NCBI GenBank assembly: GCA_951406725.2 | Contig: OX597817.1 | Span: forward strand, 52,328,001-52,392,000 | DNA length: 64,000 bases | Source: Octopus vulgaris | Lineage: Eukaryota | Direction: 5' to 3' | Shown: in pieces, positions 872 through 63,446 of the stretch | Layout of the letters: the number at the start of each line of letters is the position of its first letter | Position numbering within the stretch: the first letter of the stretch is position 1 | The notes under the pieces: model-generated | Told to the model about the DNA's origin: nothing | Database searches by the model: none | The model's input: the letters and a program-made list of their open reading frames with translations, nothing else | Position numbers and translations under genes: made by a program

Positions 872-2460
872 GTGAGTATGATTTTTTTTAACCCTTTTGT
901 TACCCTGTTTCATAGGGAACATAAATTAATATTAAATGTTGAGGGAAAGTTTTAATCTAGGTCACTTGAACCCTTTTGTTATATTTCATTTCAACATACA
1001 CACCTCACAATGCCATCCCTTCAATCCATTTTAAAAATAATTCCCTTTAACCCTTTTGTTACCATATTATTATTGATTAATTAGTTGTTATTTTTTATTA
1101 AACATTTTAAAACATTTAAATTTAAAATCCGGCAGGAACTTAGTTGCCAACCCAATACATATACATATATATATTAAATTAAATTAGAGATAAAACCACT
1201 ATTTAGGCAAATCAAACAGTGAAAAACATAAACCAAAACATAGAAATAAAATTAATTAATATAATATACAAAATATATAAAATATAAAATTCAAAATTTT
1301 AATTATTTAATATATATATATATATTACGGAGATGTACTTGCATAGCGAGTGACTTGATCTGAGATCGCGTGCTGGAACGAAAACAATTGCAGCGTGGAA
1401 GGTGTTTATAAGAAACACACAAAACCGTTAGATTCACTTCAACATTTAAATTTAATTTGTCAAAATATTGCAGGGGATGGAGGTGGCATAGAACAAGGAA
1501 GTATAAGTCACTTTTTGCATCTTTGATGTCTGATCTCTGCCTCTTAGTATCGGTTATTTTCCATCTGGTGTGTTCTCCTGATGATGAGCATGCATTTATT
1601 ATTGGCATAATGATGATCCCTATTTTTAATTTTTATTTCATCTAGTTACAGCTCACAAGCTGTGGCCATGCCGGGGCACTGCCACTTGGTGTTGCTACAT
1701 GATTTTACTTCGCGAATGCTTTTTAGCAACAATTGACATTTGGTGCATGAGAGAGTTTAATGCAGCTGCCCTTATCTGCACCTTTTTTTTTTGTGTGTAT
1801 ATATATATATATATATATATCACCGTGGTCACTGTGACCGACCAGGCTATCAGATGTTGCTACACATTGCTGGTCACAATACGCTTCGCATTGTTTTAGC
1901 CTTCAAATGATGCCACCCCGCTGGCTAAGCGAGCAGGCCAACAGAAGAAAGAGTGAGAGAAAGTTGTGGCAAAAGAGTACAGCAGGGTTCGCCACCATCC
2001 CCTGCTGGAGCCATGTGGAGCTTTAGGTGCCCTAACCATTGGGCCATTGTGCATCCACATATATGTATTTATATATATATGAAATTTTGAATTTAGTTCA
2101 CAAACCCAGTACTACCATTGCGGACCATCAGGGGTCTGTGGACCATACATAGGTTGGGAGCCACTGGTATTAAAGATGCAGAGCATATAAGATGCACCCT
2201 AATTTCAGCAGTACATTTTATTCTTAACTCTTTTCTCTTTTACTTGTTTCAGTCATTTGAATGTGGCCATGCTGGAGCACCGCCTTTAGTCGAGCAAATT
2301 GACCCCTTGACTTATTCTTAGTAAGCCTAGATACAACAAAATTTGCTTTAACACACAAGTTCACACCAAGAATCTTGCAAAGCAAATACTGAATTGTGAT
2401 TGAAAAAAAATTTTATTCAAAACATTAAATTTACCAAATTATGTTCTATGTATTTTACAG

Positions 2461-2622
2461 GACAACAAAAGACCCCCTGCGTTGGAAGTCTTCTGGAAGA
2501 TGGCAAAAAAAGACAAAGATTATATGACTCGTCATGAAATTGATAATTTTTCTCCTGACAAACTGATGGTGGTCGTGAAAGTTCTCAATTCTAGATTCTC
2601 AAAAAAGAAAGATGAACTTTAA
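2461..2622 (+). CDS. Terminal coding exon: DNKRPPALEVFWKMAKKDKDYMTRHEIDNFSPDKLMVVVKVLNSRFSKKKDEL*; ER-lumenal protein with a degenerate EF-hand-like motif, family uncertain
   Basis: Acceptor tattttacAG at 2460, phase-0 open frame ending GAT GAA CTT TAA (KDEL-stop), followed by microsatellite-rich 3'UTR-like sequence. Confidence 0.85.
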   Translation, partial: DNKRPPALEVFWKMAKKDKDYMTRHEIDNFSPDKLMVVVKVLNSRFSKKKDEL

Positions 2623-2823
2623 AATAATACTTAATCTCAGCCTGCCGCATCATCATCATCATTATCATCATCATCATCATCATGATTATTATTATTATAA
2701 TTATTATTATTATTATTATTATTATTCTATGTTTGACTTTTGCTTTACATTTGTACAAGTTGGCTCCAAGTCTCACCCAGAGACCTCAAGAGACAACAAA
2801 TTGGAAGTTCATTATTATTATTA

Positions 2824-3072
2824 TTGTATTAAAACCTGCAGCTTATATTGCTGGGTATAATGGAAAGTGTCAGCTGTCCACAGCCAGCAGACTAAGGTGA
2901 CACTTGTTTTACTGGTCATGCTTCAAGAACATAGTGAAGAATTCTTGCAGTTCCAAGCAATGCTGACTTTTGTAGGTGTTCTACCTTCACACTTGCACCA
3001 ATCATTTTAAGCCATGTTTGTAATTGAATGCTGATACTTCCAAGTGCACCAATTACTATTGGTATCATGTCT
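2824..3072 (-). mobile_element. 3' end of an R4/Dong-like (REL endonuclease) non-LTR retrotransposon
   Basis: Minus-strand translation IPIVIGALGSI...VEHLQKSALLGTARILHYVL*, flanked by (ATT)n. Confidence 0.7.
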
Positions 3073-3097
3073 AATTATTATCATTATTATTATTATT

Positions 3098-3465
3098 ATT
3101 ACCTCCGCCTTATAAAAAGGTAGAGGTATTGTTTTCAATTGTGTTTATTTGTTTGTTTGTCCTTGGACAAGATATCTCAAGAACTGCTGGATGGATTCAG
3201 ATGAAACTTTCAAGGATATTTGGCCTCATGACTGGCACAAACTGATTAGATTTGGGGATTGATCTGGTTCCAGACAAGGAGTCTGGATTATTTTTCTAGT
3301 TTTTTTACTTAATTTTTGAAAGTGGTTGGGTTCATTTTTAGTATTCTTGTTTGAGAAAGCAGTCGAGTTTATTTCGGATATTCTCATTTTAAAAATCATC
3401 TGTAGCTAATCGTTGAGAGGATGTTGGTGTTGCCTTGGCGGAGGTTTGCGCTCTCTGAGTGCTCT
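3098..3465 (+). mobile_element. Non-autonomous Helentron/DINE-1-like element
   Basis: Starts ATTACCTCCGCC, ends GCCTTGGCGGAGGTTTGCGCTCTCTGAGTGCT (subterminal inverted repeat plus 3' hairpin); partial second copy at about 27770-27848. Confidence 0.55.
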
Positions 3466-3659
3466 TATCATTATTATTATTATCATTATTATTATTATTA
3501 AGGCAGCAAGAAAGACTCATGAGAATTGAAATACAACTTTTGTATTTCAATTTCTGGATCCTTATATTTAGTGATCCTGTCGAATTCCTTGACAAATGTA
3601 TTTTTATTAAATACTTACATCTATCAGTTTACAAGTATTTTCTTTCTTCTTCTTCTTCT

Positions 3660-3852
3660 TATTGTCTTTGCACAGCTTCTAATGCTGGAAATGTACTACA
3701 GTATCAGCTGTTCACTACCAGTGAACTAAGGTAACACCCCTTATTTTTCGAGCACCATCTGGAGTATTTGAGCAGTTCCAAACAGTGCTATTTTCTGCAA
3801 GTGCTCCACTCTTATTGCAGTACCTATTTCTTCCATGTACTTCTCAAGATTT
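3660..3852 (-). mobile_element. Second R4/Dong-like 3' end fragment
   Basis: SKNLEKYMEEIGTAIRVEHLQKIALFGTAQILQMVLEK* (end of ORF 3741-3992), followed by a (GAA)/(TAA) tail. Confidence 0.7.
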
Positions 3853-5589
3853 TTACTCACTACTATTGTTATTGTTGTTGTTACTTCAGTAGTTTTATTT
3901 ATATTGTCTGTGTTTACTACACAAGTGATCCCAATTTTGTGTATTGTGAGCCATGCAGTGTTTAGTTTTGTTTTTACATTTTCTATTGTCAAACATCACA
4001 CATATTTTGTAGCCTATATGTTTTGACGCTTTATATATGCATGAGCTCTTTGTAGCAAATAAAGAACAAATTATTATTATTATTATTATCATTATATTAA
4101 AAAACATTCAAGCGAGGTCATTGCCAGTGCCGCTGGACTGGCTCCTGTGCAGGTGGCACATAAAAAACACCATTTGAGTGTGGCCGTTGCCAGTACCACC
4201 TTTAATTCTATGATTAACAGAGTTAGGGGTTTGAAGTTTCCCAGGAGAATGTTCAAAATACTTTCATTGTTCCCAAACAATTATAGAGCGTGCAAGTGCA
4301 CCCCCTGTTCCTGAGCCTCCAGTTGCCAGATGTAACAGATGTCAGATAAGACACTAGCAAAATATCTGGTACATAATGATGTAGCTTGCTGAGCTGACCA
4401 GTAACATCTTAAGGTATGGGCAGGCCCCATACATCTTGGGGCCAAATTCTAATCTTTATATGAAGTTGTTTTTTGTAAATAAATAAATAATATAGGGCCC
4501 AGTGCATTGGCTTATTACACTGCAGAGGCTTATAACACTGCTAAAATGGCCCTGAAGCAGACCATCAACTCTAAGTGACTGATTCCTCACACAGAAGCTC
4601 AACACATCACCTCTGGGTCTTTGAAACTAGCCTTTTCACTGTGTTCAGCATCCTTGAAACACTGCAGAAAATAAAATTAAAAAAAAGCATTCTGTGAGCC
4701 TGATTGGATCTCATCTGTAATACTAAAGACTGACATTCCGTTAAACACTTACACAGCTGGAGACTGATTTAAAGAGACATACTGGAACAGTGGTCACTTT
4801 TGAATGTGAATCTGTTCTGAAATCTGAACTGCTTATCAAGATCAACAAATACCCTGAGATTTGTGCATCAGTTGGAATTGTTTCTCAGCAAAGCTCTGAA
4901 AGTCAAAAAAATCTCTCTCAGATAGAAGCAACCATTGACCCCAAGCTGACATACAACTAAAATGATGTCTGTGTAAAGTGGATTGGATAGCAATCTGGTA
5001 GATTTAACAAAGAACAATTTACTTAGTCTCACCTTCACTATCATTGTTGCTTTCATCATTTAATGTCCATGCTCTATGCTGGCATGGGTTGGACAGCTTG
5101 AAAGAAATTGATGTGTCCAAGGACTGCATTGAATTCCAATGTCAGCTTTATCATGGGTTTTGTAGCTGGGTGTCCTTCCTATCGCCAATTACTTTATGAT
5201 ATAGACTGGGTGGGGGTACAGCCGGTTCCTACAGAGAGACCTGCATGCGCTGCAAGGCATAGAATGGTAGGAAGGTACTCAGGGGAACCCTGCCACCCAG
5301 GCAAAGTCTGAGTAGAAGTGGATGGTTTGTAAGATTGTATAAGGCGGCAAGCTGGCAGAGACGCTTGCACACTGGGCGAAATGCTTAGTGGTATTTCGTC
5401 TGCCACTACATTCTGAGTTCAAATTCCGCTGAGGTCGACTTTGCCTTTTATCCCTTCGGGGTTGATAAATTAAGTACAAGTTATGCACTGGGGTCAATCT
5501 AATCGACTTAATCCATTTGTCTGTCTGTGTTTGTCCCCTTGTGGGCAATAAAGAAATAAGATTATATAAGAAGGTGAATGAGTGGAGAT

Positions 5590-6512
5590 GGGGGGGGGGA
5601 GAGGGTAGACTGTCAAAATAGGTAGGGGATCAAAATCTATCAACTACTTCTAATGAGACATCATTTAAGAGACTCAATTTCTGGTGTGCTATCTACTGCC
5701 CCAGTGAATTAAGTGCATATGAACTTTACATTCTTGGATAGTCTGTCAGTGAATCCACTACATTTCTTGAATGTCTATAGGTTACATCAAATTCAGTGTA
5801 TAGAGTTTATACCTATCCTTTTTCTACATATTAAGCAAGGCCATTTTCCCAAAGGTATCAGGATCCTGTTATGTTTTCTACTTACTTAAACCTTAGTCTT
5901 CAACAGGTTAACCTAAAGACCCCTCAATTCTAGGTTTTTGCTTCTATGCTTGGAATTTCTCCTCTGATTCCCCCATGTATTCAGCTATGAGGACTAGATC
6001 ATCAGCATATAAGAGTTCCCATTGATAGCTGGTCTTAAACTGTTCAGTGATGGCTTGGGCGACTATGATGAGTAGGAGAAGGCTGAGGACTGAACCTTGC
6101 TCAACTCCTACTTTCACAATTTATCACTGAAATCATTGTCAACTCTCACTTTACTTACAGCATCCTTATAAATAGCTTAAGCTACCCATACAAGCCATTC
6201 ATCTTCGCCTAGTTTCCTCAAAACCTACCAAGTTACTGAATGTGGTACCCTGTCAAATGTTTTCTCTAAATCAACGAAAGCCAGAAATAGTGGTTTGTTC
6301 TTAGCCAGGTATTTCTCCTGCAGTTGTCTCATTAGAAATATATAACACCTGTGGTGCCTCTTCTGAGGACAAAGTCAAAAGACATCTCATCCTGGTTCAC
6401 TCTATCATGGGTCAACCAGACTATATCTTTTTCCAAGACTTTCATTACTTGGTCTAGAAGTTTGATTCCTCTTGATATTGTAGTGACGCCATTTTTGAAG
6501 TCTTCAGCATGC
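5590..6512 (-). mobile_element. Decayed RTE-clade LINE reverse transcriptase fragment
   Basis: Minus strand gives RGIKLLDQVMKVLEK, LAFVDLEKTFDRVPH, QGSVLS and ELLYADDLVLIAE (YADD at about 5998-6009), with stops and frameshifts. Confidence 0.85.
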
Positions 6513-6752
6513 ATGTGCAGAGCTGGATTCTTCTGGGAGGCATGCTGGAAGTTCCCTCTTGTGCATGTGCAGAGAACTAGCAGTAGCAAAACTTCTCATG
6601 CATCGATCTCTCTTGAAGCTGACAGTCGAATAGAACGGATGCGTTCTCACAGCTATCCCAGGCTGCCACCACGTGGTGATGCTACACTATGCTGGAACGA
6701 GACAGGATTTGGTTCACACCACTTAACCATTGTGACTAGCTCCATAGCTACC

Positions 6753-7444
6753 GATTCGCCTTGCGCTGGTATGGTCATGTGGCGAGAATGGATGAAGATA
6801 GTTGTGTGAAAAAGTGCCACACCCTAGCGGTTGAGGGAACCTGTGGAAGAGGTAGACCCAGGAAAACCTGGGATGAGGTGGTGAAGCATGACCTTCGAAC
6901 ATTAGGTCTCACCAAGGCAATGACTAGTGACCGAGACCTTTGGAAGTATGCTGTGCGTGAGAAGACCTGGCAGGACAAGTGAGACCATAACCCGTGGCCT
7001 TTACCTGGGATGTAGCCAGTCTGCTTATGCATACCTTTCCTTCTTGGGACATAAAACTCTACTTGCTAAGACCTGTTGAGGCAAGTGAAATTGAAATCGA
7101 TCAAAATCAATGGAAATTGTAGTTGTGATACCAGTACCAGTACTGGTATCACAACGTGGCCATTGCCAGTGCCGCCCCGACTGGCCTCCGTGCTGGTGGC
7201 ATGTAATAAGCACCAACCGATCATGGCCGTTGCCAGCCGCGTCTGGCACCTGTGCCAGTGGCACGCAAAAAGCACCCACTACACTCACAGAGTGGTTGGC
7301 GTTAAGAAGGGCATCCAGCTATAGAGCTGTAGAAACCCTGTCAGATCAGACTGGGCCTGGTGCAGCCTCCTAGCTTCTCAGACCCCAGTTGAACTGTCCA
7401 ACCCATGCAAGCAGGGAAAGCGGACATTAAATGATGATGATGAT
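6753..7444 (+). mobile_element. RTE-clade LINE 3' end (ORF C-terminus, 3'UTR, (GAT)n tail)
   Basis: LRWYGHVARMDEDSCVKKC...GRGRPRKTWDEVVKHDL...DRDLWK is a typical RTE C-terminus; its 3'UTR is shared with many truncated copies in the window. Confidence 0.9.
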
Positions 7445-8010: not shown

Positions 8011-10169
8011 TTAACATACTTCCTCCCACACAGATAGAAAGATAAAGCAAAAGAGGAAGAAAGGGAGAGGGAGAGAGAGAGAGAGAGAGAGAGAGGGTAA
8101 ATCTGAGGGTGCCCTGGTTGAAATATGAAAAAAAAAAAAATTAAAATTATGAAAGTAAATTATCTAGAAATCTGTTTAGTCACCTTTTGTAAGATAATCG
8201 GAACAATTAAATCGATCCCCAATACTTGATTAATACTTTATTTTATCGACCACAAAATGAGGGTGCAAGGTAAAGTTTGATTTGAACTCCGGATGTAAGG
8301 GAACTGAACTAAACACGCTATAATGTCGTCTCACGCTCAAAGAAATTTACGAAGTTGACGTTAACTTAAACATTTTTTATATATACAATATCACAAACCA
8401 CTTAAAAGTATTGAAATAAGTCAAGAATAATTTTTCCTAATGCGCGACATCGAATGATAGGATAGGAAGTTATCAGACTTATAAAGGAGGGAAAAAGGCA
8501 ATGATAAAGTTTATACTTTTCCCAAGAACGTGAGTGAAGTAAATGATAATGAGAAATCTTCCATTAACTGAAATATTTTGCTTGTCGAAGATCTAATAAA
8601 GTATGATTCTTTTGATTTAATCGAGCGTGAACGGCGCACCAGTTAATGAAATTGGTACAACTGGGTGAGTGAAGCTTACCCCTAGTGCTTATCTCTTTTA
8701 ATTAAAAAAAAATATATTGGTTTTAAATTTTGACACGAGACCAGCAATTTCAGGGGATGAGGTAAAATTGATTATATCGACTGGTACTTAATTTATCGAC
8801 CCCCGAAATGATGGAAGGTAAAGTCGATCTCAACTTCGACTTTCGTCCTTTCGGTATATGAACACGAATAATTTCCACACACACGTACAGTCGTCTAAGA
8901 ATCCATAAGTCAGAAAAAATATATGCACTCGTCGTATATTTGTCAGTACAGTGCGTATATTAAGCAAAGTGTATAGTATTTTAAATCCATTACGGCCGAT
9001 TGGCATATGATACTGTACTCTTTGATATATATATAAAGGTGCTGCGAGCGTGACTAAAGATCGGGCTCAGTAACGAGTTTTGCACCTCACTCGAATATCT
9101 ATAGTAAGAAGCGGGGAAATAAAACCTCGGTTAATGCGAATGAGCGAAATACGAGCTAAATAATAGAAATATTTCGTTTTTGGATTTGGTTTGCAAGATT
9201 CTTTATATGAGTTCGTGTGTTGAAGCATGTTCTGTTGTGTCTGGGGTGAGTCATTTTCTTTTTGTGCCTTATGTGAGAGTCAAAACTATTGAAAAGGTTG
9301 CAAGACACAACGAAAATTTTAGGACAATAAAAATAAGAAAAAAGTGGAAATTTTACCGGCGTGTGTGTTACATTATAAGGCACAAAAAGAAAATGACCCT
9401 CCCCAGACACAACTGAATAGAAATGATAATTAACAGAAAGCAGGTATCGTATTTAATGCTTTATAGAACATTGAATACTGATTCTATTTTCTGTTAATTA
9501 TTATTGTTTACATATATATATGATGCGTTTGCTAGAAGATACAATTCAACGTCGGTAACAATATACGAACTCGCGACCTCGGGAATCGAGGTCAATAACG
9601 AATATTTCCTCCCATCCACCAAAAAGGACTTGATGAAACAGAGTTCGCTCCCCTTTGATGCTATTGTATTACGCAAGTGTCAGTGGGAGGTAAGCAGAAT
9701 GAGAAATAACCCAGACACACACGCGCGCGCACACAGACACAGCACAATATAACTATGCACTAAATTTAAAAAATAATTAAATAAAAATACTTCCTAAGGT
9801 GAAAGACACCCTATTTTTGATGTCTTCATCGACAGAACCAATGATATAATTAATTCAATCGGGTTTATATTATTATGTCACCTTAACCCGCCACTCTGTC
9901 ACCCTAAAACACTTTTTTTCTTCCCTCCCTATGCAAACACGTAATAATTTCATCAGCCCTCCCTCACTTAGACTGTCATTGATTTTAATTGCGAATGACT
10001 TAGAAAAAAATTCAGAAAATAAAATAAAAAATAGCAGAAAAATGATTTAACATGGTTCATTTCTCTATTTGCGTTTTTATTTAGTTTCATTAAAGTTTAG
10101 TCCTGTTCTGTGTTGTTTGTAGCTGGGACGTTTTATATGGGTCACAAGTAGTTCGAATTTTACTGTCGA

Positions 10170-11162
10170 CCGCCATAACTTCTCTTCTACCTTTTTTTCC
10201 TCTTACACTTGTCTTCTTCTCCCTTCATTTGCACGCATCGTTTTTTTTTTTGCTGTCTGCCTTCCTCCACTTTTTGTCTGTCTCTTATTGTTTTGCTCTT
10301 TTCTTTTTCTCTTTCAACTCTGATATTCTTTCCCTCCCTAACCAACAAACTCTTTCTATTCTCCTCTCTCTCTCTATTTGTCTATCTTTCTTTTTTTAAA
10401 TCTTTATTATTCTATTTCTCTCTCACCTTCTTCACTCTCTCATTCCCCGCACTTTTTTTACTTCGCATAATTCTCCCTCCCTTCACCTCTTTTCCTTTCT
10501 ATTCCTATTCTACTCTATCAAATCTGTTCAACTCTCTTTTCCTTCTTTCAATCTTTTACCCTCTCTCTTCCTGTTGTCTTCCTCCGCCTCTCTAGTCCTT
10601 TCTCTCTCTTTGTCGCCCTCTCTGTTTACTCCTTCTCCCTCTCTCTATGTGTCTGCCGCCTTTTCTACTCATTCCTCTCTATCTTTGTCTTCCTCCTCTC
10701 TCGCTTTGTCGCCCTCTCTGTCTACTCCTTCTCTCTCTCTCTCTATGTGTCTGCCGCCTTTTCTACTCCTTCCTCTCTCTCTTTGACTTCCCCCTCTCTC
10801 TGTATCTTTGTCTTCCTGCTCTCTCTGTCTCCCTCTCTCTCTATGTCTGTCTCTTCTCCCGCCGTCAGCCTGCCGCACTTTTCCTTCTTACGTCTATCTA
10901 TATATTATATCACACGCATACATATATCCACCTATAAACACATATACATACATAAATAAACATATCTCTCCATATTCTCTTTTTTCTGTCGTTCTCTTGT
11001 TCTAAATCGGTCATATATGTATGAGTATCTATCCTTCGCTTTATTCCGTCACTTAACTGGGGACGTTTCCCTTCCTGCTATTCGAACACATCCTTCAAGC
11101 AGCTGGAAACTGGGACTACCACTACAAGACATCAACTTTTATCCCAGCCCATTACTTACCTC
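10170..11162 (+). promoter_or_regulatory. Probable Argonaute promoter / 5'UTR: about 700-nt polypyrimidine (CT-rich) tract followed by non-repetitive 5'UTR-like sequence
   Basis: Strong strand asymmetry with recurring GCCGCC motifs immediately upstream of exon 1; locally retained CpGs. The TSS cannot be determined from sequence. Confidence 0.5.
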
Positions 11163-11184
11163 ATGTACCCTACACAGCCTCCAG
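11163..11184 (+). CDS. AGO2: Argonaute coding exon 1 (MYPTQPP-G)
   Basis: ATG TAC CCT ACA CAG CCT CCA G|GTATGT: 22 coding nt ending in phase 1, like the short MY.. first exon of vertebrate AGO2 as I recall it. In-frame stop upstream at 11022-11024. Lies just downstream of a CpG-retaining, CT-rich promoter-like zone. The symbol denotes the AGO clade; exact orthology is not established. Confidence 0.75.
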
Positions 11185-41416: not shown

Positions 41417-42130
41417 TATATATGTCTGTGTGCTTGTCTTTGCCCCCCACCCCCACAACATTGCTTGACAACCAATGCTGGTGTTTATGTCCCTGTAACT
41501 TATCGATTTGGCAAAAGAGACTGATAGAATAAGTACTAGGCTTACAAAGGATAAGTCCTGGGGTTGATTTGCTTGGCTAAAAGGTGGTGCTCCAGCATGG
41601 CTGCAGTCAAATGACTGAAACGAGTAAAAAAAAAAATGGTTTTTAAAAATAAAGGATTTACAATATCCTGTTTCTAACTCCTACCTTTTTCCCAGCAAGG
41701 TAGTACCCCCCCCCCCCCAATGAACAGACAGGTATTTCTTGGAAAACTGAAAACCAGACTACATTTCTTTGTATAAGGATGACAATTGCTTACAGGCATC
41801 CTACAGTGTTCAGACATAGATGTGTGCGTGCACGCACACACACACATACATGCAAATGTGTGCATGCACACACAAGTGCACAGATGCACATGCGTGCATG
41901 TGCACAAAGGTCTTTTGGTTTGTCTCTACCAAATCCAAATCCAAACCCTGGGCTACACTAGTCTCTTACCTAAGGTGGGACTGAACCTTAAACTAATTGT
42001 TTGTGAAGCAAGTTTCTTAACCATACAACCTAAGCTGTTTTTTTTCTTCTTTATTTTCCATCCTGATTTTCACCTTACATAAATGCGATGTTGGTATATT
42101 TATGCATTTTTTCTTTTTTTTTTCATTCAG

Positions 42131-42160
42131 GAGGGCCTGGCATGAACCCCCAAATTTCTG
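42131..42160 (+). CDS. AGO2: Argonaute microexon 2 (30 nt; GGPGMNPQIS)
   Basis: Long poly-T tract plus cattcAG acceptor, donor TG|GTAAGT, phase 1-1, Gly/Pro-rich peptide matching the flanking exons. Confidence 0.7.
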
Positions 42161-42247
42161 GTAAGTTGATGTCTATTTTAAAATAGTTTTAACCCTTTGC
42201 CTGTTCAAAGCGTTTTCATATGTTTGTTGTAAACATCCATGCTTGTA

Positions 42248-42534
42248 CAGTTCTGTATTTAAGAGATGAGGAATTATGTACATTATTTACATTTGACAGA
42301 TATTTGTCCTCATCTTGTTTGTTGTTAACACAACGTTTCGGCTGATATACCCTCCATCAGGTGTCTTTTGAACCTGGGCTCTCATTCCTAAGGTATTTGC
42401 CGAAGACATCTCATGAAGGCTGGAGGGTATATCAGCCAAAACGTGTTAACAACAAACAAGATGAGGACAAATATCCATCAAATGTAAATAATGTAAATAT
42501 GTACATAATTTCTCATCTCTTAAATGTAGAACTG
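42248..42534. mobile_element. Fold-back (inverted) pair of Penelope-like terminal segments, each with a decayed hammerhead
   Basis: 42248-42365 is largely the reverse complement of about 42405-42534. Left core has lost 7 nt (AAGGCTG); right core reads CTCATGA...AAAA. Confidence 0.75.
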
Positions 42535-43536
42535 TTAACATAAAGGCGCATGGCTCGGTGGTTAGAGCGTTGAGCTTATGATTGTGAGGTTGTGAGTTCG
42601 ATTCCTGGACCGGGTTGCGTGTTGTGTTCTTGAGCAAGACACTTTATTTCATGTTGCTCCAGTTCACTCAGCTGTAGAAATGAGTTGCGACATCACTGGT
42701 GCCAAGCTGTATCGGCCTTTCCCTTGGATAACATCGGTGGCATGGAGAGGGAAGGCTGGTATGCATGGGTGACTTCTGGTATGCATGGGTGACTTCCATA
42801 AAAACCTTGCCCAGACTTGTGCCTCGGAGGGTAACTTTCTCGGTGCAATCCCATGATCATTCATGATTGAAGGGGGTCTCCTCCTCCAGAGCTTATGGAA
42901 GTGCATGTGAGAATGGATTCTGTTGAACAAATGCGTCAAATTTTTTAAGTCGAGTTTCAGGGTAAAGGCTTACTAGCAAAGAGAGCAATACAAATATTAG
43001 TTCAGAAGTGGTGTGCTACATGGTTAGTGCACAACACCTCGAAACAGAGACACTACAGTTTGAATGCCGGAAGTTATTCAGGACTTTTGCCAAAGGATTA
43101 CTCAAAGTCTAAAGAAGCCGACACTTAAATTGGTGCTGCAGTCTCACATAAGCAGGAGGTCAAGCCAACAAGTGTTAAAATGTCTAAAGTTGAAGCCATA
43201 TTATTTCACATGTGTATAACAATTAAAAGTGGATGACAAGAGCAAGTGAGTAAATTACTACATATGGCCTCTGAATAACCGCTATAAGCAGTCGAAATAA
43301 CATAGTGATACTTGAAAACAAAGTACTTTGGGTACTTTGCTGTGTGTGTAAGAGAGATGGAAGGAATACTATTTACTACATAGAGAAAGACTGGCACAGC
43401 TGAGGGAATAATGTACCCACTGGACATTAACGTCTAGTGATTGTTTTTTTTTTTTTTTAGTGCTTCAACTAGGGAGACAGTTTACAGCAGTCGCTTTGTG
43501 GACTGCAGCTAATATGGCAAACTATTGATGTGCCAT

Positions 43537-43843
43537 GTGGAGGCACATGGCCTAGTGGTTAGAGCAGTGGACTCGCAATCGAAGGATCATGGGTTTGAAT
43601 CTCAGACCGGGTGATGTGTGTGTTTATGAGCGAAAACGTCTAAGCTCCACACACCACTGGCAGGAGGTAATGGCGAATTTCTGACTCTTTCGCCACAACT
43701 TTCTCTCACTCTTTCCTCCTGCACCTTGCGGCTCACCTGCAACGACCGGCATCCTGTCCAGGTGGGAACATATACACCAATGAAACCGGGAAACCGGCCC
43801 ATATGAGCCAGGCATGGCTTGAGAAGGAACAAACAACAACAAA
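43537..43843 (+). mobile_element. tRNA-derived SINE family C with (AAC)n tail; related copies at 40118-40509 (-) and 1821-2058 (-)
   Basis: A box TGGCCTAGTGG and B-box-like GGTTTGAATCTC; body ...CTAAGCTCCAC...CAACTTTCTCTCACTCTTTC shared among copies. Confidence 0.75.
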
Positions 43844-45294
43844 CATTGATGTTTCATTAGTCGAATTCAAATTTTGCTAATCCTTTACCTTTCATCATTC
43901 TTAAAAGTAAAAAAAAAAAAAAAAAAAGGGTATCAATCTGGGTGATGGATTAGCAGACCTGAAACAATGTCACATTCGATACCTAGTGGCAGAAACGTTA
44001 GCACACCGGGTGAAATGTATAGCTGTATTTCGTCTGCCGCTATGTTCTGAGTTCAAATTCTGCCGAGGTCGACTTAGCCTCTCATCCTTTCGGGGTCGAT
44101 AAATTAAGTACCAGTTACGCACTGGGGTCGATGTAATTGACTTAATCAGTTTGTCTGTCCTTGTTTGTTCCCGCTGTGTTTAGCCCCTTGTGGGTAGTAA
44201 AGAAATAGGTATTTGTGCTGGTTCTTTACTTTCTGAGTTAAAATCCCACCATAGTTGTCAGGTCATTTATGAGGCACTCTTGTGAGTGCTACTGATAACA
44301 TGGAATCCATTACAACCTGTTGCATGCTTGGGTCATTGGCAACTAAACCAGTGCCCTGACTAGCCTTCCCTGGTGAGGTGGGTTGCTAGAAATCCAGCTA
44401 AACTGAAAGCAAGACCTATCAAATGAATCTAGTGTAGGTTCAATGACCATCTGGTAATAGCACGGGCCCTTGGAAATTCTAGGTCAGTGGCTATCATGTT
44501 GGAAGACCACTGGCAGTGAGGCTCCCCTTATCTTTTGTTAAAACATGTCTCTAGAACCAGTTTGAAGCCCAGGCTGTGTCTGTTCTGATTATTGGTAGTG
44601 ATTTGGTCAGTGTATCCTCTATGACAGTCGATGGCAAGATGAGCTGCAATGAATTTCACCATCTTAGTGTATGCATGTGACCGGGGACCACATGTGAAGA
44701 ATTCCTACTGAAACTTCAAACATGAGCTCAACAGCAATTGATTTAGATGTGGCCAGCATTTGTGAGGGACATGGTGAACTAGTTGGTCGGAGCTGGCTCA
44801 ACCCATTAATTAGTGTTCCTTGGTTGTCACTCAATTCGATGACACTTGCTCTCTTGAGATATTGGCTATTGCCGTGCCATGTCTTTTATCTAATTCAACA
44901 AGGCTATTTTGAATTGTTGTTTAAAAGTCTTGTAGCTTAGGTTTATTATAACTTGCTACACGGGTGACAGAAAATTGATGTAAAATGGTACAGTTTGAAA
45001 TAACACCTTCATAATCTTCTGTTTTGTGATCTTTATATTTTATATCTTTCGTTGTGAGGAGATACGGGGTCTGCTAGGACTTGGGGCTATATACACAGTC
45101 ACAGCAATTTGTTTTGTCTAGGAATTTACACTTGGTGATATCAAGGGTTAAAATTCATTTTCCATTTCAAACACTTAACCATTGAACAAATTCGGGAAGA
45201 GGAATTTGATCTTTTGTTTGAATAATAATGATAATTATAATAATAATAATAGTAATAATAAGAGAGTATTGTAGTTCGCTTGAAGCATTGTGTA

Positions 45295-46011
45295 TTGTTT
45301 GTAAAGAATAAAAAGTTTCGAATGGTACAACAATGCACTATAATACAGACAATGGACTATATACCTATTGTAATTTAGTCATCCATACTCTTTTACTTGT
45401 TTCAGTCATTTGACTGCGGCCATGCTGGAGCACCGCCTTTAGTCAAGCAAATCGACCCCAGGCTTATTCTTTGTAAGCCTAGTATTTATTCTATCGGTGT
45501 CTTTTGCCGAACCGCTAAGTTATGGGGACGTAAACACACCAGCATCGGTTGTCAAGCGATGTTGGGGGAACAAACACACACATATAGTTTCCGTTTACCA
45601 AATCCACTCACAAGGCTTTGATCGGCTCTAGGCTATAGTAGAAGACACTTGCCCAAGGTGCCATGCAGTGGGACTGAATCTGGAACTATGTGGTTGGTAA
45701 GCAAGCTACTTACCATACAGCCTCTCCTGCGCCTAGTCTGATAATATTTTAGAATAAAATTTCTTCTTCAGATATTCTTAGACAGTCGCTGCTATGATCG
45801 GTTTTCCAACGGCTTTTTTTTTTTCGGAAGCCTCTCAGCAGTGGTCTTACTAAGCTCCTCCTGGAATTCCTCATGAGAAGTGCGTAAGGTTGGCCATGTC
45901 TTAATCTCATGTGTGCTGGTGCATCCGTAGCTCTGCTTCTAAGTTATGTATTATATGTGAGCCCATTGTTTGTCTTACAGTGCATTGTTGTACCATTCAA
46001 AACTTTTTATT
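45295..46011. mobile_element. Repeat with ~50-bp terminal inverted arms (45307-45356 / 45962-46011), split by a family-B SINE; partial second copy at about 47385-47560
   Basis: Arm AATAAAAAGTTTCGAATGGTACAACAATGCACTATAATACAGACAATGG and its reverse complement. Sequence on either side of the SINE is contiguous in the 47.4-kb copy. Confidence 0.7.
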
Positions 46012-46065
46012 AATAGTAATGATAATAATAATATTAATAATAAATTTTTCCTCTCTTTTTTTCAG

Positions 46066-46245
46066 GTGGGCTACAGCCAGGCGGAATGCCCCCAAGTGGG
46101 ATTCCACCTGGCGGACTGCCTCCAGGTGGACTGCCTCCAGGTGGACTGCCTCCAGGTGGATTGCCTCCAGGTGGAATGCCTCCAGGTGGACTTCCACCTG
46201 GTGGACTACCACAAGGCGGGCCGCCACCTGGCGGACTTTCCTCAG
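46066..46245 (+). CDS. AGO2: Argonaute exon 3 (180 nt), Gly-Pro repeat: GGLQPGGMPPSGIPPGGLPPGGLPPGGLPPGGLPPGGMPPGGLPPGGLPQGGPPPGGLSS
   Basis: Acceptor ctctctttttttcAG, donor CAG|GTATGA, phase 1-1. GC-rich island in AT-rich DNA; 15-nt repeat with mostly third-position variation. Confidence 0.85.
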
Positions 46246-46825
46246 GTATGACCTTTTTAACATTCTTCCACCAAGTGACCCTCCTAAAAGTAAACCGATT
46301 CATCCAGGTTATTCCTGTTTCAAGAGACCCCTATATTATTCAGTCCCTGTCTTTTCTAGCTTTTCTCTGTCAAATATTTATCTACTAGTATCAAAACAGC
46401 TCGTTAACATTTGCTTCATCCAGTGATTCATATCTGAATCAATGAATATTCACATCGCTGAGGTTGACTTTGCCTTTCATCCTTTCGAGTTGCATACTGG
46501 GGTCGATCTAATCGACTGGGCCTCCTCCCCCAAAATTCCAGGCCTTGTGCCTAGAGTAGAAAAAACAGTTAAGAAAATAGAGAGATAATTAATAAATAAT
46601 AATTTATTAAAATGTGTCAATTTTTTAATTAGTAAATAATAATTTATTAATCATCTCTCTAGTTTCTTATCTTATTGTAATAAATAAATATATATAAACC
46701 ATGGTTTATATAGTTACTTTGCAGTTGAGTATTAACTGTAATGTTCAACATTCTTTGTATTGGTAACTAACCAGTACTTTCATAGGATTTTGCTATCCCT
46801 TAATAAGGTTTGTAACCTTTATTTG

Positions 46826-46856
<31 letters not shown>

Positions 46857-46860
<4 letters not shown>

Positions 46861-47181
46861 AGGTGCATGGCTCAGTGGTTAGAACGTTGAGCTTACGATC
46901 GTGAGTGAGGTTGTGAGCTCGAATCCTGGACCGGGCTGCGTGTTGTGTTCTTGAGCAAGACACTTTATTTCATGTTGCTCCTGTTCACTCAACTGTAGAA
47001 ATGAGTTGCGACATCACAGGTGCCAAGCTGTATCGGCCGTTGCCTTTCCCTTGGATAACACTGGTGGCGTAGAGAGGGAAGGCCGGTATGCATGGGCAAC
47101 TGCTGGTCTTCCATAAAACAACCTTGCTCGGAATTGTACCTGGAAGGGTAACTTTCTAGGTGCAATCTCATGGTCTGTGTC

Positions 47182-47182
<1 letters not shown>
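46857..47182 (+). mobile_element. tRNA-derived SINE family D (V-domain-like CTTGAGCAAGACACTT); second copy at 42543-42880
   Basis: A box TGGCTCAGTGG, B-box-like GAG(T/C)TCGA(A/T)TCC; the two copies are collinear. Confidence 0.75.
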
Positions 47183-47219
<37 letters not shown>

Positions 47220-48677
47220 TAGTGTACAGAATAATAATAATATTACTAGTGTAATAATAATACTAGTGTACAGAATAATAATAATATTAGCCAAAAGAAA
47301 TGAAGTAATCGTTCTTTAGTTTATTTAATATATAAATATAGAAAGTCTTCAAATTTTCTAAGGGAATGAAATAAAATATAGTATTTTGTAAAGAATAAAA
47401 AGTTTGGAATGGTACAACAATGCACTATAATACAAACAATGGGATATATACCTGTTGTAATTTAACCACCCATAGTCTGATATGATATTTCAGAATAAAA
47501 TTCCTTCTTCAGATATTCTTAGATGGAGTTGCTGCTATAATCGGATTTCTAATGGCTTTTCTTTTTATTAATTCCATTTCCTTAGAAAATTTGAAGACTT
47601 TCTGCTTCATTTATTTCCTTTGTCAAATGCATATTGGTAAGGAAAACTGATTTTAATGAACAAATTGAATGTGTGAAGGAAACAGAATCAGGTACAGGTT
47701 ATTCATGCTTTGAGAGTGATGTCATGACAACAGATAGTTAGATCTGGATATATGGTGTCCTGTTAAGATAGCATCATCATCATCGTTTAACATCTGCTTT
47801 CCATGCTAGCATGGTTTGGACGATTTTGACTGGGGGCTGGTGAACCAGATGGCCTGCACCAGGTTCCAATCCTGATCTGGCAGAGTTTCTACAGCTGGAT
47901 GCCCTTTCTAACGCCAACCACTCTGAGAGTGTAGTGGGTGCTTTTTACGTGCCACCGGCATGGGGGCCAGTCGGGCGGTACTGGCAACGACCTCACTCAA
48001 ATCTTTTTACTAATACCACCGGCACAGGTGCCAGTAAGGCGACATTGGTAGCGATCACGGAAGCCAGTTGGCTGCTCTAGCAACGATCACACTCGGATGG
48101 TGCTCTTGGTACCCTACTAGCACGGACACAAGTGCCAGTAAGGTGACGCTGGTAATGATCACACTTGAATGGTGCCTTTTATGTGCCACAATTAAATATT
48201 TAATTGATGATTGAATTGCTTATGTTTGATCCACTGCAGGACGGAAGCGTCGGCATGTTCTCTCCACCAGCCACAGTTGGATGTGGAAGCAGTTAATTTA
48301 AGTTTGTGATCATACTGGTTTGGTCATTCTTCTCTGCTACAATGGCTTAAGACATGGCTTGGCAGAGAGGTGCAGTTTTTACACTCTTACCGTAGAGTAC
48401 TTGAGTCTATGTTTAGCCCCCTGTGGGCGATAAAGAAATAAATTACATCAAGCTCAGTGCACAACTGGTACTTATTTTATCAACCCTGGAAGTTGAAATT
48501 TAAACTCAGAACATAACGATGAACAAAATGCTACTAAACATTTCCTGTGACATGCTAACAGTTGTCAGCTCGCTGCCTTATTGATGATTGTTAACTAATT
48601 ATTTTGCTCTCTAGTTTGTAAACTGCAAAATTACATATCTAGTTGTATATTTCATGCAATGTTTGAGAATTATGTAA

Positions 48678-49070
48678 TAGGCGCAGGAGTGGCTGTGTGG
48701 TAAGTAGCTTGTTTACCAACCACATGGTTCCGGGTTCAGTCCCACTGTGTGGCACCATGGGCAAGTGTCTTCTACTATAGCCTTGGGCCGACCAAAGCCT
48801 TGTGAGTGGATTTGGTTGACGGAAACTGAAAGAAGCCCGTCGTATATATATGTGTGTTTGTGTGTGTCTGTGTTTGTCCCCCTAGCATTGCTTGACAGCC
48901 GATGCTGGTGTGTTTATGTCCCTGTTACTTAGCGGTTCGGCAAAAGAGACCGATAGAATAAGTTCTGGACTTACAAAAAGAATAAGTCCCGGGTTCGAGT
49001 GGCTCGATTAAAGACGGTGCCCCAGCATGGCCGTAGTCAAATGACTGAAACAAGTAAAAGAGTAAAGAGT
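48678..49070 (+). mobile_element. tRNA-derived SINE family B (CORE-like CCTTGGGCAAGT, internal (TG)n). Other copies (approx.): 18340-18716, 20359-20790, 21885-22225, 27332-27760, 31170-31520, 41212-41630, 45387-45735, 56906-57309
   Basis: Head AGGCGCAGGAGTGGCTGTGTGGTAAG with B-box-like GGTTCAGTCCC; tail GACTGAAACAAGTAAAAGAGTA. Confidence 0.85.
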
Positions 49071-49085
49071 ATGACACTTTTCTTT

Positions 49086-50290
49086 TATCAAAAATTGCCA
49101 AGAAAGCTGAGGGTGTCTTGGCATCACTCACCAAGTCCTTTGTGAGCCACTCTCCGGCTATCTATCTGTGGCTTTATATAGCTATGGTACGACCTCACCT
49201 GGAATTTGCATCACTGGTCTGGAACCCCTATCTTGCCCAGGATATTAATTGTCTGGAAGCCGTTCAGCGACGTGCAACCAAGAGAATACCCTCCATCAGG
49301 CATTTGCCATATTCTGAATGCCTTACTTCCCTGGGCATGGACACATTGAAACTCCGACGTGTGGCAGACACCCATAAAATTATTAACCATCTTACAAACA
49401 ATAACTCTGAGCACCTTTTCAAACTCCACCTGTCTAACACCCGTGGACATGTTTACAAAGTCAGAAAACAGCACAGCTCCCATGACTTTCGGAAACATTT
49501 TTTCACGCTAAGAGTTGCTGAAGCATGGAACAGACTGCCGGCATCAGTTGTTAGTTGTCGGAGCACTGCATCCTTCAAAACTTCCATGCTTCCTGAGATT
49601 CACCAACACTACACCTGATTTTTCTCCCCTCCTTACACATGCAAGCATGTATCTGACTCATACACTGTTCACTTCCCAGACATTTGTACTCTAGCAGCAT
49701 AGCCCGGCATTGCCCGGGTATGTAAGAGCCCCTGGAGCAGACATGATGCTCGCTGTGAATTTTAAAAAAATTCCTGCCAATTTGTGAAAGATATTGTCGA
49801 AAATATGTCATCTTGAATTTGAACGCGATTTCCCAAAATGGCATGGTTTTATCGATTTTTTTCTGATGGTAAGGTATTGCATGGAACACTAACATCAGAA
49901 TTAAGTTTCTTAGGGTAACACTAAGCTTCACAATGAGTTTGGTGAAAATTGATTGCAAGTTGCGAAAACTACAACAGAAAATGTGTTGCATATAAAAAGC
50001 TTAGATTCTCGACCCCCATGTCGAATTTATCGATTTTTTTCAGAACTGGGGGAACTTTTCAAAATTTTCGCTGCGTTAGTTTTGAATTATGACATTGGGC
50101 TATGTGTGTGTCAAGTTTCATCAGAATCGGTTGAAAGCCGTGGTTAGGGTGAGGGTACAACATGACAGACACACAGACAGACAAACTGCCGTTTATATAG
50201 AGAGAGATTACTGCATATGCTTTATATGCACTTTTGACAAGTTGTGGTGCACCTGAGCACTGTATACAATAATTTCATTGTTATTATTAT
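49086..50290 (+). mobile_element. CR1-like LINE 3' fragment (ORF remnant 49118-49618, 3'UTR, (TTA)n tail) interrupted by a nested element
   Basis: LYIAMVRPHLEFASLVWNP...LEAVQRRATK...TRGHVYK...RKHFFTLRVAEAWNRLP is the canonical CR1 ORF2 C-terminus. Confidence 0.9.
49688..50208 (+). mobile_element. Helitron-like non-autonomous element nested in the CR1 3'UTR
   Basis: 5' CTAG...CCCGGcattgCCCGGG hairpin, (ACAG)n near the end, 3' TTTATATAGAGAGAT; CpG-rich relative to its surroundings. Confidence 0.55.
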
Positions 50291-50312
50291 AAAATTTCTG
50301 TTTTGGTTTCAG

Positions 50313-50520
50313 TCCCAGCATTACAACCTGCACAGAGTAGTATCGTTGATGTTCCAACAACGCTTCCAGATTTTGTCTCGCCATCACGGCCTAATGTCGG
50401 CCAGCTTGGCAGACCGATCCAGTTACGAGCAAACTTCTTCAAGATTTCATTTCCTAAATACAACATTCACCATTATGAGGTGAGCATATCACCAGACAAA
50501 TGTCCACGCCGGGTAAACAG
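50313..50520 (+). CDS. AGO2: Argonaute exon 4 (start of N domain: ...PSRPNVGQLGRPIQLRANFF...YEVSISPDKCPRRVNR)
   Basis: Acceptor tttcAG at 50312, donor AG|GTAAAT. Hallmark AGO motifs GRPIxLRANFF and PDKCPRRVNR. Confidence 0.95.
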
Positions 50521-50607
50521 GTAAATAAACCATTGCTATATTCCCTTCACTAAATAAAAAGTAAAATTTGCTGAAACTGCTTTTATCATCATCATCATCA
50601 TCATTGT

Positions 50608-62548: not shown

Positions 62549-63446
62549 AGACAGAGACATGGACAGACAGACAGAGACACGGACAGACAGACAGAGACAC
62601 GGACAGACAGACAGAGACACGGACGGACAGACAGACAGAAACACGGACAGACAGACAGAAACACGGACGGACAGACAGAAACACGGACAGACAGACAGAA
62701 ACACGGACAGACAGACAGAAACACGGACAGACAGAAACACGGACAGACAGACAGAGACACGGACAGACAGACAGACAGAGACACGGACAGACAGACAGAC
62801 AGAGACACGGACAGACAGACAGACAGAGACACGGACAGACAGACAGACAGAGACACGGACAGACAGACAGACAGAGACACGGACAGACAGACAGACAGAG
62901 ACACGGACAGACAGACAGACAGAGACACGGACAGACAGACAGACACGGACAGACAGACAGACAGAGACACGACAGACAGACAGACAGAGACACGGACAGA
63001 CACGGACAGACAGAGACACGGACAGGCAGACACGGACAGGCAGACACGGACAGGCAGAGACACGGACAGACAGAGACACGGACAGACAGAGACACGGACA
63101 GACAGAGACACGGACAGACAGAGACACGGACAGACAGAGACACGGACAGACAGAGACACGGACAGACAGAGACACGGACAGGCAGAGACACGGACAGGCA
63201 GAGACACGGACAGGCAGAGACACGGACAGGCAGAGACACAGACAGGCAGAGACACAGACAGACAGAGACACGGACAGACAGAGACACGGACAGACAGAGA
63301 CACAGACAGGCAGAGACACAGACAGACAGAGACACAGACAGACAGAGACACAGACAGGCAGAGACACAGACAGGCAGAGACACAGACAGACAGAGACACT
63401 GGCAGACAGACAGACAGAGACACTGCCAGACAGACAGACAGACAGA
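62549..63446. repeat. About 900-bp (GACA)n-derived compound satellite with GAGACACG/GAAACACG interruptions
   Basis: Direct reading; accounts for all five 280-360-aa ORFs in this region. Confidence 0.95.

Follow-up and report, generated by a model that had tools for sequence, protein, structure and literature searches.

Can short inverted repeats in the introns of an Argonaute gene decide whether one of its exons enters the protein? The question is raised by a stretch of 64,000 nucleotides (nt) from Octopus vulgaris (assembly GCA_951406725.2, contig OX597817.1, positions 52,328,001 to 52,392,000 of the forward strand; hereafter the window), in which exon 3 of such a gene, coding for a glycine- and proline-rich (Gly-Pro) block, lies among three related 50-nt arms: A (45307-45356), B (45962-46011) and C (47394-47443). 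An earlier note on this DNA had proposed that B pairs with either A or C and so forms an RNA-structure switch controlling the Argonaute N-terminus. We consider it probable that the three arms are instead neutral leftovers from a transposon family dispersed in the octopus genome, and that the Gly-Pro exon is normally spliced and not controlled by them.

The arms as probable parts of a dispersed repeat family

The complementarity behind the proposal is real. Arm A agrees with the reverse complement of arm B at 45/50 positions and arm C at 47/50, and A and C, read on the same strand, are identical at 47/50. The inverted-repeat listing of the window holds both pairs (I4, 52 nt, 90%; I5, 50 nt, 94%), and blastn of the arms within the window returns E values of ~1e-14 to 1e-16, so that the likeness is not due to chance. 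Two wider relations had been overlooked in the earlier note: arms A and C stand at the start of a direct repeat of ~180 nt, in which 45298-45385 plus 45736-45823 matches 47385-47566 at 86-90%, and exon 3 is also bracketed by a longer inverted pair, 45386-45735 with 48678-49064 (387 columns, 81%). The features concerned are the following.

11163..11184, plus strand: coding part of exon 1, with the start codon, MYPTQPP and a GT donor; the N-terminus of record P0005 is matched
42131..42160, plus strand: exon 2, 30 nt, phase 1-1, frame-symmetric
45298..45385, plus strand: left part of copy 1, including arm A; 90% identical to 47385-47472
45386..45735, minus strand: 350-nt repeat splitting copy 1; very abundant, with 15 further matches of at least 100 columns in the window
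45736..45959, plus strand: core of copy 1; 45736-45823 against 47475-47566 is 86%, and the remainder is likewise multi-copy elsewhere in the genome
45962..46011, minus strand: arm B, the 50-nt stretch in inverted orientation and likely the right end of copy 1, at a putative element boundary
46012..46065, plus strand: AAT-rich tract, pyrimidine tract and AG acceptor, outside arm B
46066..46245, plus strand: exon 3 (Gly-Pro), 180 nt, phase 1-1, with a 15-nt tandem unit coding Gly-Gly-Leu/Met/Ile-Pro-Pro
47340..47375, no strand assigned: left arm of a separate 36-nt inverted repeat around copy 2 (I9, 92%)
47385..47566, plus strand: copy 2, truncated, including arm C
47568..47603, no strand assigned: right arm of the same 36-nt inverted repeat (I9)
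48678..49064, plus strand: second copy of the 350-nt repeat in opposite orientation, the pair enclosing arm B, exon 3 and arm C
50313..50520, plus strand: exon 4, with which the Argonaute N domain begins (Pfam ArgoN)

Contigs of four public runs were aligned to 42050-50600, two of them DNA runs with different organism labels (X2 and X12) and two whose RNA-like status is a guess (X15 and X17); the material consists of assembled contigs, which drop rare forms. In X2, the summed contig depth in the bins of B, C and the rest of copy 2 is 3,598, 8,977 and 12,031 vs 17.7 on exon 3, and in X12 it is 6,606, 19,763 and 22,011 vs 10.3, giving ratios of 203-680 and 641-2137, respectively, with the proviso that summed depth is no copy number. 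For the 350-nt repeat at 45386-45735 the summed depth runs into the millions. Position 45886 is covered by 54 contigs in X2 and 56 in X12, and 45902 by 39 and 40; the values within copy 2 are 86 and 80 at 47492 and 81 and 79 at 47530. Many diverged copies elsewhere, at 54-86 contigs per place in two DNA runs, are what a dispersed interspersed repeat displays, and judged from these alignments A, C and the adjoining repeat belong to such a family. One X12 contig follows the core of copy 1 to 45955 with 14% difference and then continues with 351 letters that are unlike the window; it is probably another copy, though it may be an orthologous one that lacks B.

With a 20-nt pattern from the arm, one locus was hit in the JGI metagenomes, where 26/28 bases agree and the flanks are unlike, and this hit was dismissed as chance. 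The arm motif is absent from the supplement of the O. vulgaris repeat study PMC13282606, of which the repeat library is not a part.

Other repeats were observed nearby. An open frame of 186 codons at 49058-49618, which looks like the end of a reverse transcriptase of a long interspersed nuclear element (LINE), is deeply covered by multiple copies in organism A, the cover in organism E being far lower. The repeat at 49772-50057 reaches a depth of 184,936 in X2 vs 3.05 in X12 and likely belongs to a family whose expansion postdates the divergence of the two organisms. A later intron contains an 845-nt array (62566-63410; 16-nt unit, 53.6 copies) with open frames of at least 300 codons on both strands.

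Proposed anatomy of the element

The simplest anatomy is likely that of a single non-autonomous element of ~355 nt, lying wholly in intron 2, with A and B as its inverted ends: arms of 52 nt at 45307 and 46011 surround a non-coding core, as expected of a terminal-inverted-repeat element. This element would have inserted into intron 2 and would later have been split by the 350-nt interspersed repeat, which we take to be like a short interspersed nuclear element (SINE). The insertion site of the latter has TA on both sides, where copy 2 has a single TA. The copy in intron 3 is likely a second, truncated one, and C would be its left end.

In being short, non-coding and multi-copy, with inverted ends of 50-52 nt around a repeated core, the element resembles the non-autonomous, terminal-inverted-repeat elements of the miniature inverted-repeat transposable element (MITE) kind described for O. 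vulgaris (PMC13282606). It differs from these in that no target-site duplication was found, and copy 2 shares at least 9 extra bases to the left of the arm. The 36-nt inverted repeat around copy 2 does not recur in the window, and it too shows no target-site duplication. An Rfam scan of 45000-48000 gave six matches, all far under the gathering score and five of them on a TA run, and a match of a 64-amino-acid frame to a repetitive protein (E 8.5e-5) was weak and dismissed.

Pairing of the arms and the putative switch

Of the competing pairings proposed in the earlier note, the physical part stands and the functional part is not supported. A:B and B:C are mutually exclusive and have similar predicted energies (-63.5 and -66.2 kcal/mol, compared with -597.8 kcal/mol for the SINE-like pair), and their competition appears physically real on paper; a functional switch is another matter, as the arms are repeat-derived and carry no sign of selection for pairing. 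In a fold of 45250-47650 the expected pairs number 46.8 for A:B and 0.0 for B:C, such folds of 2-4 kb of pre-mRNA being rough. Since arm B ends ahead of the AAT tract, neither the pyrimidine tract nor the acceptor is covered by it.

Across the three arms 5/50 positions vary, with no two-sided change of a pair. Arms A and C agree at 47/50 positions and the non-pairing part of the repeat at 103/117 (Fisher p = 0.40), so that at this low power neither the compensatory changes nor the excess conservation of a splicing switch are seen; by these comparisons, the arm variation is as expected from the decay of repeat copies.

Pairing within an intron reportedly competes with pairing across an exon (Zhang et al. 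are said to have described this in 2014). During transcription A:B would be the first duplex to form; it lies within intron 2, stops 54 nt short of the acceptor and would be complete ~1.4 kb before C is made. A later B:C or SINE:SINE duplex would lead to at most trace skipping or back-splicing and, as with duplexes of other octopus repeats, would likely be a substrate of ADAR. The share of loci capable of long duplexes is exceptionally high in octopus (PMC5625713), and editing in O. vulgaris lies mostly in introns and 3' untranslated regions (PMC9699675).

Alternatively, the arms might have been exapted, with A:B against B:C, tuned by ADAR, deciding over the in-frame inclusion of the Gly-Pro block and hence between a long octopus and a short cuttlefish-like N-terminus. 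Mutually exclusive pairings of similar predicted energy, and a fold that flips with context, speak for this possibility. So does the finding that part of copy 2 stands at the same place in organism E, where a contig of single-copy depth runs from unique flank into the right 82 nt of the copy 2 region, which makes the insertion older than the split of the two organisms. The contig of organism E across exon 3 starts near 46055, short of arm B, and neither B nor the C arm itself was seen in that organism. Against a switch stand the repeat origin of the arms, the lack of compensatory change and an acceptor region that lies outside arm B. RNA-like (59/463, 61/495) and DNA runs (74/615, 80/664) have the same share of A>G places, ~12-13% by hand count, a weak comparison swamped by other copies. 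We regard such a switch as very improbable.

An AT-rich hairpin (46567-46672; 44-nt arms at 86%, 18-nt loop) was observed in intron 3, 320 nt past the exon 3 donor.

How unusual is the bracketing of exon 3?

Both introns flanking exon 3 contain sequences that are reverse-complementary to each other, namely the 47/50 match of B with C and the 387-column pair. The window is 38% self-repeat, and 122/291 of its inverted matches bracket exon 3. A pair within the own flanking introns is found for 5/10 exons (the coordinates of exons 5-11 are approximate), a bracket within 4 kb surrounds 685/1,160 test positions, and 139/290 have a competing triad within 5 kb. Judged at shorter range, the geometry at exon 3 lies in the upper 5-10% for the window, and selection is not needed to explain it: where an element with inverted ends has a second copy across an exon, a 'competing' geometry arises by itself.

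Comparable arrangements are known. Like exon 2 of Drosophila laccase2, whose circle is driven by inverted transposons (Kramer et al. 2015, PMC4617980), exon 3 is a coding exon between oppositely oriented copies of interspersed repeats, here a short (50 nt) and a long (~350-390 nt) pair. In laccase2 the circle has been demonstrated and depends on the repeats, whereas our exon has 180 nt and its circle would be putative. In human genes, back-splicing is shaped by competing intronic RNA pairs, mostly inverted Alus (Zhang et al. 2016, PMC5052039; see also Liang and Wilusz 2014, PMC4201285), and as there, several complementary copies compete for one partner. The human systems have RNA-seq and vector evidence, while the within-intron pair described here is likely one element's own ends folding back; a further difference is the high ADAR activity in the octopus lineage.

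Linear inclusion, skipping and circles

A single X17 contig, 520 letters long at a depth of 5.8, fits 46065-46245 and nothing beside it, leaving 338 letters ahead of the fit and 16 behind. The extra letter at 46065 is explained by the G at the end of exon 2, and the stop of the fit at 46245 by the T that opens exon 4. Had the contig come from a back-splice, its left end should fit to 46062 and its right end two letters further, with which the observed ends disagree; by our reading of these ends, it fits linear inclusion of exons 2, 3 and 4. In X15 exon 3 is uncovered and the exon 4 contigs run on into introns, hence they hold no splicing information. No back-splice or skip junction of exon 3 is present among the 15 joints listed of 10,133, a list flooded by repeat contigs.

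These observations bear on a second alternative, which is compatible with neutral remnants and is kept for amounts clearly above noise: the B:C and SINE:SINE duplexes may, without selection or function, cause small but measurable skipping of exon 3 or a circular RNA (circRNA) of exon 3 (or of exons 2 and 3). The predicted duplex energies given above, a nested fold that loops the exon out, the tightest bracket of ten exons, long flanking introns (3.9 and 4.1 kb) and a mechanism known from other animals (PMC4617980, PMC4201285, PMC5052039) are in favour of it. On the other hand, efficient circularisation in a fly vector was found only for exons of at least 300 nt (PMC4617980), and exon 3 with its 180 nt misses this size for single-exon circles, which is a tendency of that vector and not an absolute rule. 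CircRNAs of O. vulgaris are also few and low, 296 having passed the filters and 200 of these occurring in one tissue only (PMC9699675). The splice sites of exon 3 look canonical (AG/GT ends, 85% pyrimidine tract, CAG/GTATGA; the exon begins 54 nt after arm B), and the X17 contig fits linear inclusion. In our view, a measurable by-product of this kind is unlikely, if clearly less so than a switch.

The earlier note had also drawn attention to exon 3 as a potential endless open reading frame. Its facts are correct, as the exon has 180 nt, contains ATGs (in the coding frame at 46086 as well as 46176) and shows no stop in any sense frame; the sense strand of the circularised exon holds no TAA, TAG or TGA at all. 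The lack of stops is unremarkable. Its own frame is endless for every coding exon whose length is 3n, and the other frames are stop-free because Gly and Pro codons rarely make stops: 60% of 20,000 synonymous recodings of the exon 3 peptide are stop-free in all three frames. The stop-free state is a by-product of codon composition and carries no information. Rolling-circle translation of a back-spliced exon 3 into a long Gly-Pro polymer, for which a length divisible by three, two in-frame ATGs, the lack of stops and the translation of synthetic stop-free circles in human cells (PMC4639774) could be adduced, therefore rests on properties shared by any frame-symmetric coding exon; in addition, the exon is short and back-splice evidence is absent from these contigs. 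We attach next to no probability to it.

The Gly-Pro exon in octopus Argonautes

The assignment of the gene to the AGO clade is confirmed. Exon 4 retrieves octopus Argonaute, and the translated exons 1-4 of the window equal the N-terminus of O. vulgaris CAI9720985.1. Record P0001 has the Argonaute Pfam set (N, PAZ, MID, PIWI), with ArgoN in exon 4, and aligns to successive exons of the window up to ~residue 436, the 3' exons lying beyond the window. Two observations concern the 5' part of the gene, namely a long intron 1 (11185-42130, 31 kb) and an extended pyrimidine-rich sequence shortly before the start codon, in which a 98-nt unit is repeated in tandem (10094-10959).

A Gly-Pro block is present in 4/4 Octopus records that reach the region (P0001, P0005, P0007 and P0008, from a cluster of six); the fifth and sixth members are a partial Argonauta record with a differing N-terminus and a fragment of 57 residues. 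The exon occurs in all three species with differing repeat number (O. vulgaris CAI9720985.1, O. sinensis XP_029634731.1 and O. bimaculoides XP_052823493.1): the block is 5 residues shorter in O. sinensis, and the N-terminus of O. bimaculoides is 17 residues shorter. These proteins are miRNA-class Argonautes of molluscs with a low-complexity N-terminus. The cuttlefish relative CAE1171979.1 differs in that its N-terminus reads like exons 1+2+4 without a Gly-Pro block, and the same holds for a further record on 22 contigs (P0019, P0089). By comparison of these proteins, the Gly-Pro exon is likely an octopod-specific, still-changing low-complexity insert in a microRNA (miRNA) Argonaute. Within the window, one 15-nt unit of exon 3 (46113-46160) is absent from contigs of both X2 and X17, which may reflect either a shorter allele (compare the O. 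sinensis protein) or an assembly collapse, three 31-mers being repeated there.

The same records bear on the exapted switch. Skipping of exon 3 keeps the frame, and because the cuttlefish N-terminus lacks the block, the octopus product of skipping would look like a protein that exists in nature; in the cuttlefish, a short N-terminus is viable. Annotated Argonaute isoforms of Aplysia, Mytilus, Pecten and Mizuhopecten likewise differ by short N-terminal segments, which means that cassette splicing of this region would be no surprise, whether or not the arms were present. Nevertheless, none of the six cluster members represents a form without exon 3, gene models showing major forms only, and the literature matches listed contain nothing relevant on alternative splicing of proline-rich Argonaute N-termini in molluscs. 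The proposed control of the Argonaute N-terminus is accordingly not upheld, with arms that are repeat-derived and lack a sign of selection, an exon present in every Octopus record that reaches it, and a contig that fits linear inclusion.

If any exon of this region is alternatively spliced, exon 2 may be a better candidate than exon 3. It is a micro-exon, the segment matching it is absent from some annotated scallop and mussel Argonaute isoforms, and its flanking introns contain 15 inverted pairs. In a second octopus Argonaute cluster, O. vulgaris P0081 lacks an N-terminal segment of 12-13 residues present in O. sinensis and O. bimaculoides (P0079, P0083), which looks as if a small exon had been skipped or missed.

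Observations that weigh against neutral remnants

Several observations weigh against our preferred explanation, in which the element class, the folding order, the neutrality of the arms and the level of skipping are the parts that we infer; observed are the repeats with their multi-copy cover, the exon and its presence in protein records. No target-site duplication was found, copy 1 showing just 4-nt AT-rich matches and copy 2 none (the ends are possibly eroded), nor was any remnant of a transposase or reverse transcriptase, with 0 Pfam families in 9/9 frames and 0 homologues of a 48-amino-acid frame of the element. For want of both marks the element class is not established, and an origin from a Penelope or LINE type (3' end plus inverted fragment) is neither supported nor excluded. 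The contig positions counted adjoin the arms, none being inside the 50 nt, so the multi-copy state of the arms themselves is taken from bin means and the adjoining repeat.

Other points concern the pairing. The minimum-energy fold of the longer stretch 45250-49150 flips to 0 pairs for A:B, 48 for B:C and 332 for the SINE-like pair, with the exon looped out. Exon 3 has the tightest bracket of the 10 exons (1,481 nt vs 2,407-7,137); a bracket within 1.5 kb exists at 115/1,160 positions and a triad within 2.5 kb at 15/290, this locus included. In minigenes, repeats of 30-40 nt suffice for circles (PMC4201285). The neutrality test has low power, with 50 positions in three copies from one genome, the site of copy 2 shared with organism E fits either an old neutral insertion or retention, and the RNA evidence is one low-depth contig.

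Meaning for octopus Argonautes and RNA editing

The arrangement is real but likely ordinary, consisting of transposon-like remnants that surround a frame-symmetric exon and are pairable on paper. As it stands it is of little import, since repeats make up two-thirds of the genome (~66% in O. vulgaris; PMC13282606) and inverted copies around exons are common in it. We see only a very small chance that transposon remnants around an octopod-added Gly-Pro exon in a miRNA Argonaute were co-opted as an ADAR-sensitive switch that links RNA editing to the miRNA machinery. If this were true, it would be a rare case of functional non-coding ADAR editing in a coleoid, and its target would be the core effector of miRNAs in animals whose miRNA set is expanded. 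The firmer result is a side one: the repeat number of the Gly-Pro exon varies among Octopus species, and the exon has no counterpart in the cuttlefish protein.

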